Source: a virus. Taken from it: a stretch of DNA of 14,967 nucleotides. Below, piece after piece: positions 4,758-6,910 of this stretch (its first letter is position 1; each line of letters starts with the position of its first letter). The stretch lies in the UHGV virus genome UHGV-1809322, one strand, 5' to 3'. The notes beneath the pieces are model-generated. The model saw only the letters and a list, made by a program, of their open reading frames with translations. It was not told the DNA's origin and made no database searches. Position numbers and translations under genes: made by a program.

Positions 4758-5351
4758 TTATAAGTTAATTGGGCTTCGATAGAAAAATACTGCACGTTTG
4801 GCATTTTCCTTGCCGAATGCTTTGCTTAATGGTGAACCAACATATGATGCTTCTGGTTGATTGAGCCTGAAGTTAGCCGAGTTGGCAGATAACATCCCCC
4901 AGGTAGAGCTTTCTGTCGGTTGTCCGGGAATGACAAGGGATACATGCCCTGTTCCCCCCTCCTCTTTCATTACTGCAATAACAGGCCACCCATCATTCGC
5001 AAGACTCTGCGCACACAAGTTGTTGTCTTCATCCAGCACAATCCCGAGTTTTTTCCAGTTTGAGTTCCCAGAATTAACCTTATCCCAAATCTGGTTTGCG
5101 GTCAGAAATGGTCCGTCCCCTTTCCCAAAGTCATCCACTCCCCACATGATATAAAGCCCTTGGGAGACAAAAAAATTGCATGGGCTTTGATCATTGGCAG
5201 GAAGACTTTCTTTGCACTTCATCAGAACGGGTAGTAATTGCGTAGACAGCTTTTCTGCCTTTTCTGTTGGAGTGTTGATGGGGGCCACAGGACATCCCCC
5301 ATACACGCCCCCAGATATCGAAAGAAGCAACACACAGCTTATATGTTTCAT
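4758..5351 (-). CDS. Secreted protein (197 aa) with N-terminal signal peptide and a papain-like Cys/His signature (possible NlpC/P60- or CHAP-type hydrolase)
   Basis: SD AGGAAGG ~7 nt upstream of the ATG. Hydrophobic N-terminus (MKHISCVLLLSISGGVYGG). Candidate catalytic Cys in SPCNFFV and His in a hydrophobic strand-turn-GHV context (PVIAVMKEEGGTGHVSLVIPG). Lies 29 bp downstream of the 509-aa gene on the same strand. Confidence 0.6.
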   Translation of the reverse strand: MKHISCVLLLSISGGVYGGCPVAPINTPTEKAEKLSTQLLPVLMKCKESLPANDQSPCNFFVSQGLYIMWGVDDFGKGDGPFLTANQIWDKVNSGNSNWKKLGIVLDEDNNLCAQSLANDGWPVIAVMKEEGGTGHVSLVIPGQPTESSTWGMLSANSANFRLNQPEASYVGSPLSKAFGKENAKRAVFFYRSPINL

Positions 5352-5380
5352 AGATGCCTTCCTGTACGTCGCTCAATGAA

Positions 5381-6910
5381 TTACTTGGGGTTCTGAATTT
5401 GTGTATACGTTGCTCTTGAGATAAACGGCGCATTATCACCAATTGACGTGATTAATACCGTCGGTATGCCATTTTTCAACTCATCTTCTTTACCCAGCGT
5501 CCAGGTAATTACAGCCGTGTTGTTTGCGATTGGGATCGCATTCACGCCAGGGAGTTTAGGTATATTCGTTAGCAACTCATTGGCTTCAATTTCCGCCTGA
5601 GTCTTCACAGTAGTCCATTTACCTGAAACTTCGTCCACTCGTTCTTTTATGTCAGCCAATGCAGGAAATGCCTGCTCTGTTAATTTGCCTGCTGCGTCTT
5701 TTACATAGGGTATATCGGCAAGACAACTAACATTTCTGGCAGAAATACACCCCACCGTTTCCGCTGCAGTGCTTAAAGTGGGATTACCTTTTACAATCTC
5801 ATTCACCGAATTTTGCGCATCCTGAATGAGTACGTTGCCTGAGGACTTGAGGAATGCGTCAGTTATTGCCTGCTCATCACCACCAGCTGCAGCAACAGCA
5901 ACTCCGCCTACAGCGCCCGCAATGGCGGCTTTCTTGACGACCTCTGTGATTGTGCCTGTCGGCATACCATTAACAATAGAACCGCCTTGTTGTTGCACCG
6001 CCGCAAGAACACCTGCACGTATAGCGGCATTTATGTCACCGGTCATTCGCAGGGTTTTCCATGATGCAATGGCTGCCGCGCCAGCCGGTCCTCCATAAAA
6101 CGCGGCTGCAGACGTAGCAGCCATATCCAGGACGTGACTTTCCTGAGTTGCTTTGAAAAAATTATCTTCAGTATTATGAAGTGGTGCCACTGTAGTGGAC
6201 CAGATCGCATCAATTATTTTACCTTCACGGGCCTGATTCTCGGCTTTCTTCAATAACTCATACTGTGCACTCAATTCATTCCCAGCAAAGTGCGCAATAG
6301 CTGTACCAGCTTCAGTAATATCGTTAAAACTTCTTTGAGCTTGATTGCTAATGTCTTTCCACGCTTTGTCGTAAGTGCTGGCAATATCATCGAACGCTTT
6401 TACAAACGTTCTCGTTGCATTATCGACTGTTTTCTTAACCACTTCGATTTGGCGGCTTGTTTCGCCAACAACTATTTTAGACACGGCACCAACTGTGTCT
6501 TTAAATGGGTCCGTGCCACTATTAGAACCAAATACCTGATCCCAAGTAGGTAAATTGGGCAGATTCGGTAGATTGGGTAAGTTAGGTAAATTAGGTAGAT
6601 TAGGTAAGTTGGGCAGATTGGGTAATTTAGGGAGATTTGGTAGTTGAGGAAGACCAGGAATATCCGGGAGACCCAAAAGGCCAAATTTTTGCATCTGCTG
6701 CAGATGCATTCGCTCAGAGATATTGCTTTCTGTAGTCTGTGTTGGTTGTGGCTGCTGAGGTAGTGAAGCAGAGGAATAGGCATAACCTGGTGAGCATATG
6801 ATTGTTATATTTGGAATCATCACTGTTTTTGCATCCTCTGCAAATGATAATCCCGGCCCCAGCGCAAGAGCGATTGCACTTAACTGCATAAACCTGTTGG
6901 TACTTTTCAT
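5381..6910 (-). CDS. Secreted repeat-containing protein (509 aa): signal peptide, (Leu-Pro-Asn)n proline-rich tandem repeat linker, large C-terminal domain with Gly/Ala-rich hydrophobic segments
   Basis: SD GGGGAGGG ~9 nt upstream of the ATG. Signal peptide MKSTNRFMQLSAIALALGPGLSFA followed by EDAK. Repeat GLPDIPGLPQLPNLPKLPNLPNLPNLPNLPNLPNLPNLPNLPT. Hydrophobic Gly/Ala-rich stretches (ATSAAAFYGGPAGAAAIASW; KKAAIAGAVGGVAVAAAGG). Confidence 0.75.
   Translation of the reverse strand: MKSTNRFMQLSAIALALGPGLSFAEDAKTVMIPNITIICSPGYAYSSASLPQQPQPTQTTESNISERMHLQQMQKFGLLGLPDIPGLPQLPNLPKLPNLPNLPNLPNLPNLPNLPNLPNLPTWDQVFGSNSGTDPFKDTVGAVSKIVVGETSRQIEVVKKTVDNATRTFVKAFDDIASTYDKAWKDISNQAQRSFNDITEAGTAIAHFAGNELSAQYELLKKAENQAREGKIIDAIWSTTVAPLHNTEDNFFKATQESHVLDMAATSAAAFYGGPAGAAAIASWKTLRMTGDINAAIRAGVLAAVQQQGGSIVNGMPTGTITEVVKKAAIAGAVGGVAVAAAGGDEQAITDAFLKSSGNVLIQDAQNSVNEIVKGNPTLSTAAETVGCISARNVSCLADIPYVKDAAGKLTEQAFPALADIKERVDEVSGKWTTVKTQAEIEANELLTNIPKLPGVNAIPIANNTAVITWTLGKEDELKNGIPTVLITSIGDNAPFISRATYTQIQNPK
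6549..6647 (-). repeat. Imperfect 9-bp tandem repeat array (~11 units, GGYARRTTN on the + strand) encoding the (LPN)n tract of the 509-aa protein
   Basis: Consecutive units ggtaaattg, ggcagattc, ggtagattg, ggtaagtta, ggtaaatta, ggtagatta, ggtaagttg, ggcagattg, ggtaattta, gggagattt, ggtagttga. Most unit-to-unit differences are synonymous in the minus-strand frame. Confidence 0.9.

Follow-up and report, generated by a model that had tools for sequence, protein, structure and literature searches.

An accessory, mobile envelope cassette in a P1-type phage genome encodes a predicted exported amidase with the Tse1 fold

A stretch of 14,967 nucleotides from the virus genome UHGV-1809322 (the window in what follows) carries two neighbouring minus-strand genes that form an accessory, mobile envelope cassette. 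Its second gene encodes an exported amidase with the fold of Tse1 (Tae1), the amidase effector of Pseudomonas aeruginosa's type VI secretion system (T6SS). We regard this as a firm result, which is carried by the gene structure, purifying selection, a Tse1-like fold with a conserved dyad, signal-like N-termini, mobility and recurrent pairing. The first gene encodes a large protein of an unannotated family. The explanation that we favour, tentatively and with somewhat less than even confidence, is a horizontally acquired accessory ('moron') envelope cassette in which the amidase and its large partner act as a couple and are neither virion components nor the main lysis system. The parts of the two genes, in window positions, are:

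5381..6910, minus strand: gene 1, an open reading frame (ORF) for the type-A partner, an exported envelope protein of 509 aa from an unannotated family
6839..6910, minus strand: predicted signal peptide of gene 1, residues 1-24, MKSTNRFMQLSAIALALGPGLSFA followed by ED, with predicted cleavage between SFA and ED
5352..5380, minus strand: intergenic spacer of 29 nt, containing gene 2's ribosome-binding site, AGGAAGG 6 nt 5′ of the ATG
4758..5351, minus strand: gene 2, a predicted 197-aa exported Cys-His peptidoglycan amidase homologue of the Tse1/Tae1 fold
5295..5351, minus strand: predicted signal peptide of gene 2, residues 1-18 or 1-19, MKHISCVLLLSISGGVYG followed by GC, lacking a lipobox, with presumed cleavage there
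5178..5180, minus strand: codon (checked) of the predicted catalytic Cys58 in the SPCN motif, aligned to Tse1 Cys30
4944..4946, minus strand: codon (checked) of the predicted catalytic His136 in the GHV motif, aligned to Tse1 His91

Both ORFs start with ATG and are preceded by Shine-Dalgarno-like sequences (GGAGG for gene 1 and AGGAAGG for gene 2), and the short gap of 29 nt between them is also kept in homologous gene pairs. Compared with a chromosomal homologous pair (locus L004, described below), the ratio of nonsynonymous to synonymous substitution rates (dN/dS) was 0.12 (gene 1) and 0.15 (gene 2), both values being approximate with dS near saturation. Judged by their sequences, the two ORFs, which a first-pass annotation made from the letters alone had placed at these positions, are real genes under purifying selection.

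The small protein has no match to any Pfam, PHROG, NCBIfam or PADLOC model, and the NlpC/P60 (PF00877) and CHAP (PF05257) profiles did not match it even at E = 1. A profile of ten homologues gave eight weak matches in the PDB, all of them to Tse1 (E ~0.04-0.06). When the family profile was aligned with Tse1 by hhalign, using a Tse1 sequence identical to PDB 4eob_A, C58 (SPCN) fell on Cys30 and H136 (GHV) on His91, with 36% identity over 72 columns and a probability of 80%. In Tae1, experiments have established Cys30 and His91 as the catalytic dyad (PMC9270033). The small protein shows the Tse1-type papain-like fold, with Tse1/Tae1 as its closest solved relative and with PcsB and MepS-NlpI among its structural neighbours. 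It is 20% identical to Tse1, and its sequence similarity to Tae1 proteins lies below significance. The small protein is thus best called a putative Tae1-like exported amidase of a sister family, remote in sequence and close in structure. The first-pass annotation had recognised neither protein as a member of a known family; this stands for the large protein, and the small one is now placed as a remote Tse1/Tae1 relative.

Residue conservation was counted over the non-gap rows of 259 aligned relatives. C58 is Cys in 250/250 relatives, H136 is His in 243/254 and W99 is Trp in 254/255. The papain-like Cys…GHV arrangement proposed in the first-pass annotation does exist and its histidine is kept, so that the Cys/His pairing on which the hydrolase idea depended survives in the alignment, but the predicted nucleophile is C58 and not C113. 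C113 (NNLCAQS) was rejected as a nucleophile: it is Cys in only 50/259 relatives and aligns to a residue in a Tse1 helix. Together with C20 and C46, it is conserved within the close amidase clade. C46 (codon 5214-5216), located 12 residues N-terminal of C58, is Cys in 238/241 relatives and could form a regulatory (caging) or a structural periplasmic disulfide.

An exhaustive HMMER search of 1.84 billion representatives yielded 382 related clusters (50% identity) at E <= 0.001, of which 222 scored <= 1e-10, and none of the 382 is captured by Pfam, NCBIfam or PHROGs. The relatives are mostly exported proteins of ~180-210 aa labelled 'hypothetical' from Proteobacteria, Acidobacteria and Bacteroidota. 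In some lineages, the amidase domain forms the C-terminus of proteins of 545-1255 aa, and the four of these that were inspected start with signal peptides. Distant amidases often stand alone or adjoin giant proteins on integrase-flanked or conjugative elements. One such case is locus L027 (804-5558), a Bacteroidota-type conjugative element with DUF4133, DUF4134 and TraG-like genes, where the gene for a 1396-aa protein is followed, after 7 nt, by a distant homologue that has a signal peptide. This suggests that conjugative elements also recruit the amidase family.

The N-termini of both proteins, to which signal peptides had been assigned from the outset, show the Sec-type layout of a basic n-region, a hydrophobic core and a c-region of small residues, and this layout recurs in relatives. 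In homologues of the small protein, the signal regions end in VHA/QC, AEA/NC and TYA/QC (the slash marks the presumed cleavage site). By a crude hydrophobicity test, signal-like N-termini were counted in 160/189 full-length members of the small family and in at least 33/54 of the large family, and in one 'signal-less' Mesorhizobium homologue a mis-called start masks the signal peptide. Sec export and signal cleavage are predicted from sequence for both proteins. We read the N-termini as export signals because they occur in both proteins and in most relatives, alongside conserved Cys pairs and one OmpA fusion. The small protein was also considered as a lipoprotein. This was rejected, as a lipobox is absent and the -1 residue before Cys20 is G, Q, N, S or E.

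The neighbourhood survey covers ~20 loci, numbered with the prefix L. Close relatives of the amidase lie directly 3′ of a large exported protein in all examined loci but one, the exception being L022 (Pseudomonas sp. Root562), where the amidase has no partner. The partner is of one of two types. Type A, the family of the 509-aa protein, is found in the window, L014/15, L004, L001 and L012/13. Type B, exported Cys-rich proteins of 585-612 aa, is found in L005-7, L016, L017/18 and L023, and the amidases linked to it show 49-55% identity and come from Acinetobacter baumannii, Cupriavidus lacunae and metagenomes. The type-B genes, all of an unannotated family, lie at:

L005, 4212-6032
L016, 4153-5988
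L017, 1070-2908
L023, 2653-4410

Type-B proteins carry GPxGPGPC motifs, Cys-containing repeats of ~35-40 residues and C-terminal NPGQIWGG repeats ending in CLPWC. No remote homology between the two types was detected by hhalign (probability 0.3%). The tight, recurrent pairing with two unrelated large exported proteins, together with the fused forms, points to a functional couple.

At the DNA level, the nearest relative is L014, a 96-kb contig of an Escherichia coli phage-plasmid (assembly GCA_027726555.1) that is 97-98% identical across most of the window and has the same two genes. Searches with the DNA of the module and of the whole window gave no close match in 50,697 GenBank phages or 5,426 complete E. 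coli genomes, only unrelated fragments of methyltransferase genes, and neither protein was matched in the 50,697 phages. The cassette differs from its flanking structural genes in base composition, with 45.6% GC (0.38-0.45 at third codon positions, GC3) compared to 52.3% (GC3 0.55-0.62). The pair also occurs in other settings. Two Enterobacter kobei phage-plasmids carry it (~51% and ~54% identity) at another site, between baseplate genes and a tyrosine recombinase, and Buttiauxella has it as well. In L004, the pair is 70-72% identical and chromosomal, beside an integrase fragment, and the region upstream of the cassette is retained. A 56-aa ORF there (4021-4191, minus strand) is homologous to the 94-aa PAAR protein of the window but truncated. 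Because the upstream region and the truncated PAAR gene are kept, we read the L004 island as a decayed relative of the window phage in which the two-gene cassette alone was left intact. In IMG/VR, the amidase family gave two weak loci, and a profile scan of genome contigs with a narrower alignment found matches in two species only.

The large protein has no meaningful family match in Pfam, PHROG, NCBIfam or PADLOC, and a fold match was not found. Matches of its LPN repeats to the formin FH1 region and to the group B Streptococcus (GBS) BAC protein were discarded as low-complexity matches. Its ~54 homologues come from Enterobacterales, rhizobia, Ralstonia, Variovorax and metagenomes, and are named 'hypothetical protein' or after a fused extra domain. 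A Pfam scan of 52 family members found such extra domains in single members only, one of them an OmpA peptidoglycan-binding domain. An AlphaFold2 (AF2) model of the protein is of low confidence, with a predicted local distance difference test (pLDDT) score of 55, so the architecture given here is partly inferred: a signal peptide, an (LPN)9 spacer, hendecad helices, an Ala/Gly-rich core, a disulfide and an alpha/beta C-terminus. After the signal peptide, the corresponding segments are:

6547..6643, minus strand: 9-bp tandem DNA repeat coding for the (LPN)9 proline-rich spacer, residues 90-119 (Tandem Repeats Finder, period 9, 10.8 copies)
6266..6508, minus strand: putative helical region of 11-residue (hendecad) repeats, residues ~135-215 (AF2 helices H135-172 and H177-211, low pLDDT)
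5873..6124, minus strand: Ala/Gly-rich helical core, residues 263-346, with the YGGPAGAAA...W motif (the best-modelled part, pLDDT 79-91)
5384..5833, minus strand: predicted C-terminal alpha/beta domain, in which C388 and C396 form a nearly invariant Cys pair (strands and helices modelled by AF2 at 359-489, pLDDT 78-86 at 430-500)

The spacer holds nine LPN units, in line with the repeat first noticed in the sequence, and distant homologues have LPxLP-type linkers after the signal peptide. The hendecad periodicity is seen as a lag-11 autocorrelation, with a z of 2.9 for the window protein and values as high as 16 among homologues, which carry variable copy numbers of KAGGDTVxTxQ-type 11-residue repeats upstream of the core. 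The conserved part of the protein spans residues ~150-506 and includes YGGPAGAAA..W, two Gly-Gly turns and the Cys pair. Invariant columns are A269, Y272, G273, G274, P275, A278-A280, W284, G343 and G344. Residues 263-346 are indeed rich in Ala (27%) and Gly (17%), as had been noted from the sequence. The further suggestion that these segments resemble the hairpins of pore-forming toxins found no support: they are weakly hydrophobic, a single 19-residue window reaches 1.6 on the Kyte-Doolittle scale, the longest uncharged runs are 22, 24 and 17 residues, and neither a pore-former nor a colicin-like fold was detected for the large protein.

The surroundings of the cassette were identified by PHROG and Pfam scans of the neighbouring ORFs, which mark the stretch as a P1-type myovirus or phage-plasmid. 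The features are:

82-2316, plus strand: fused C5/N6 DNA methyltransferase, like P1 Dmt
3084-3887, minus strand: antirepressor
3884-4372, minus strand: 162-aa ORF, placed like P1 icd between the antirepressor and C4
4418-4505, minus strand: C4 antisense RNA (Rfam, 71 bits)
4530-4605, minus strand: isrK-type Hfq-binding small RNA (Rfam, 62 bits)
6911..7126, no strand assigned: divergent intergenic region, 40% GC, a presumed promoter that travels with the cassette
7127-7411, plus strand: PAAR tail-tip protein, 94 aa, first gene of the divergent structural operon

The cassette had been placed outside the structural operon and beside an antirepressor/immunity-like region, and mapping of the antirepressor, C4 and isrK agrees with this; the two genes are presumably co-transcribed. 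The C4 and isrK RNAs lie back to back, directly downstream of the cassette and upstream of the 162-aa ORF and the antirepressor. Because of these two Rfam matches, we assign this region as a P1-type immI operon with an additional isrK-like element. The 162-aa ORF, over twice as long as P1 Icd, is matched by nothing in Pfam, PHROG, NCBIfam or PADLOC. On the other side, the structural operon starts at 7127, is divergent from the cassette and runs in the order PAAR, a 617-aa protein (phrog_1014 match), sheath, PmgG-like and tube, with the 617-aa protein occupying the place of P1 capsid gene 23 as the counterpart of gp23. The intergenic region between the two is ~68% identical to the DNA upstream of the L004 pair. 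It contains a perfect 9-nt inverted repeat (7025-7033 / 7046-7054, AAACACTAA-N12-TTAGTGTTT), of which L004 keeps only one arm, and that partly. The repeat was considered as a P1 late-promoter (Lpa) box and rejected, as it is unlike the -22 boxes read from the P1 record.

Further observations concern the methyltransferase, the antirepressor and the region between them. Positions 2316-3084 are mostly non-coding, with several strong hairpins (for example 2323-2349). An A7/T7-flanked hairpin at 3050-3078 resembles a bidirectional terminator, and a 53-aa hydrophobic ORF lies at 2356-2517 (minus strand), where L014 has a gene call too. The segments of the window to which L014 does not align are 3495-3883, the N-terminal half of the antirepressor, and 424-657 and 925-1047, both inside the Dmt-like methyltransferase. 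Their pattern suggests a mosaic exchange of domains, perhaps of specificity regions.

In the explanation we favour, gene 1 would deliver, from a shared transcript and just upstream of gene 2, an exported elongated envelope protein whose mature form would consist of the proline-rich spacer, hendecad helices, Ala/Gly-rich core and a disulfide-bonded C-terminal domain. Gene 2 would supply a Sec-exported papain-fold cysteine amidase that uses the C58/H136 dyad to cut the peptide stems of periplasmic peptidoglycan, and by analogy to Tae1 the target bond would be gamma-D-Glu-mDAP (D-glutamate to meso-diaminopimelate). The amidase may locally edit the producer's own sacculus, after which the bulky partner would cross the wall or embed in it. 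This cannot be told apart from coupling in the reverse direction, in which the partner would hold the amidase in place and in check, in the manner of the coiled-coil modules of PcsB/CwlO or of the adaptor NlpI acting on MepS. These enzymes and the hydrolases of type 10 secretion are conceptual precedents. For the element, the gain would be an altered envelope of the lysogen. We infer both the direction of this functional coupling and the biological pay-off.

Several points weigh against this explanation. Tae1 directed to the periplasm of E. coli lyses the cell (PMC9270033), so one would expect an exported homologue to do harm if nothing restrains it, and an inhibitor was not identified. Some restraint must therefore exist; candidates are the partner protein, a low intrinsic activity or a C46-C58 disulfide. 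The model of the large protein is poor. In addition, the family of the 509-aa protein occurs in rhizobia, Variovorax and Ralstonia without the amidase, alone or with unrelated cytoplasmic small genes, which means that the large protein does not depend on the amidase, and distant amidase relatives frequently stand alone.

The location of the cassette brings up superinfection exclusion or lysogenic conversion, which we consider rather unlikely. Here, the pair would be expressed in the lysogen and alter its periplasm or wall, blocking incoming phage DNA or other envelope-crossing attackers. This would be analogous to the periplasmic Sim of P1 and is compatible with the wall-editing mechanism. SimC of P1 is an exported periplasmic protein, both cassette proteins are predicted to be exported, and the P1 sim operon adjoins c4/immI according to the GenBank annotation, with the cassette in the corresponding C4 neighbourhood. 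An intact cassette in a decayed prophage also fits a benefit to the host. On the other hand, no similarity to SimC was found (best BLASTP E values 0.043 and 22, short segments), sim is divergent from c4 whereas the cassette is co-oriented with C4, and the cassette of the E. kobei phage-plasmid is not beside the immunity region. We know of no peptidoglycan amidase among known exclusion proteins.

The kinship with an interbacterial toxin, the closest relative of the amidase, could also indicate a bacteriocin-like two-component antibacterial. In that case, the amidase would be a toxin freed at phage-induced lysis or via vesicles, and the large protein would be a carrier, receptor-binding or translocation subunit across the competitor's outer membrane. 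The occurrence of the amidase domain as the C-terminal part of very large exported proteins, like in polymorphic toxins, and the swapping of the partner among lineages are consistent with such a role, and a disordered proline-rich N-terminus followed by long helices recalls colicins. We nevertheless judge it quite improbable. No immunity gene is evident, matches to Tsi1 or PDB immunity proteins being absent at E up to 10 (single sequence) and 1 (profile), and both Sec-routed proteins would meet the producer's wall first. Moreover, the large protein is also found without the amidase and shows no colicin-like fold. The specific proposal of a T6SS-independent delivery of a Tae-type wall toxin, in which lysis or vesicles would free the exported pair and the large protein would take the amidase across the outer membrane of competitors, is slightly less probable than the bacteriocin-like role taken broadly. 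If it were true, exchanging type-A for type-B partners would direct one lytic warhead at other targets. In a related scenario, a C46-C58 disulfide would keep the enzyme latent in the producer periplasm, and it would fire only after release or reduction, like P1 lysozyme.

The need to restrain an exported Tae1-type enzyme (PMC9270033) can also be taken as the key to the cassette. The upstream large protein would then be a periplasmic inhibitor or 'immunity' scaffold, and the amidase would stay latent until a trigger. With the large gene upstream and tightly spaced, the inhibitor would be made first, and helical modules that check NlpC/P60 or CHAP domains are known from PcsB and MepS-NlpI, both structural neighbours of the small protein. 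However, amidases that are 50-55% identical have two unrelated partner families, an uncommon situation for cognate immunity, known Tai proteins have a third of the partners' size, and the type-A protein exists without the amidase. We rate this toxin-inhibitor pairing as quite improbable too, no less so than the bacteriocin-like role.

An auxiliary lysis function, with the small protein as a second, Sec-exported endolysin and the large one as a spanin-like or membrane-disrupting helper, appears highly improbable: the phage does carry a peptidoglycan hydrolase-type enzyme, the cassette faces the late structural operon across a common intergenic region, and caging of the active site by the invariant C46, located 12 residues ahead of C58, is conceivable, as in P1 Lyz, but the neighbouring genes include no holin or spanin, phage collections contain essentially no members of the family, the hydrophobic segments look too weak to form a classical membrane hairpin, no pore-former fold was found, and the persistence of the intact pair, under purifying selection, in a non-functional prophage remnant makes the unconventional lysis role once considered for it less likely.

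Whatever the role of the couple, the cassette presents a wall amidase of toxin type that brings its own export signal and does without an injection machine. Natively exported close structural relatives of Tae1 form a large family on phage-plasmids, integrase-flanked islands and conjugative elements, which raises the questions of how a cell tolerates an exported Tae1-type enzyme and whether T6SS effectors derived from exported amidases or gave rise to them. A further envelope-protein family that lacks annotation is defined in Enterobacterales, rhizobia and Burkholderiales, its members combining a proline-rich spacer with hendecad repeats and the YGGPAGAAA core. The system is compact, and experimenters can clone its two genes.

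Compared to known systems, the cassette differs from a phage lysis cassette, whose enzyme has no cleavable signal or a SAR anchor, in that it has no holin or spanin neighbour and its distribution is not restricted to phages. With P1 Sim (simABC), accessory genes annotated as superimmunity, it shares the position beside c4/immI, but the two have no sequence similarity and a different orientation, and Sim has no enzyme. From NlpC/P60 and CHAP hydrolases (MepS/Spr, LytE/CwlO, PcsB and CHAP endolysins), the cassette differs in that its helical partner is unrelated and encoded separately, and an FtsEX- or NlpI-type regulator is not present. In type 10 secretion (typhoid toxin, ChiA, Tc toxins; PMC13284979, PMC10109510), a dedicated wall hydrolase that comes from phage-like DNA or is carried by it lets a bulky exported protein pass the sacculus; the hydrolase lacks a signal and is encoded with a holin beside the cargo. 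The cassette differs in having no holin or spanin and a hydrolase with its own signal peptide, and any resemblance would be functional and is hypothetical. The closest comparison is with Tse1/Tae1 (T6SS amidase effector family 1; PDB 3vpi, 4eob), with which the small protein has the fold and the Cys/His dyad in common. In contrast to Tse1/Tae1, the locus has no T6SS context, its PAAR, sheath and tube genes being phage tail genes. A Tai1-type immunity neighbour is absent as well: the neighbours are the non-coding RNAs and the 509-aa protein, which, alone or as a family profile, gave no match to Tsi1 or another immunity protein in the PDB. Finally, the small protein carries its own Sec signal peptide, ~40 additional N-terminal residues and several more cysteines (C20, C46, C113), and its gene lies on a phage-plasmid and follows that of a large exported protein.

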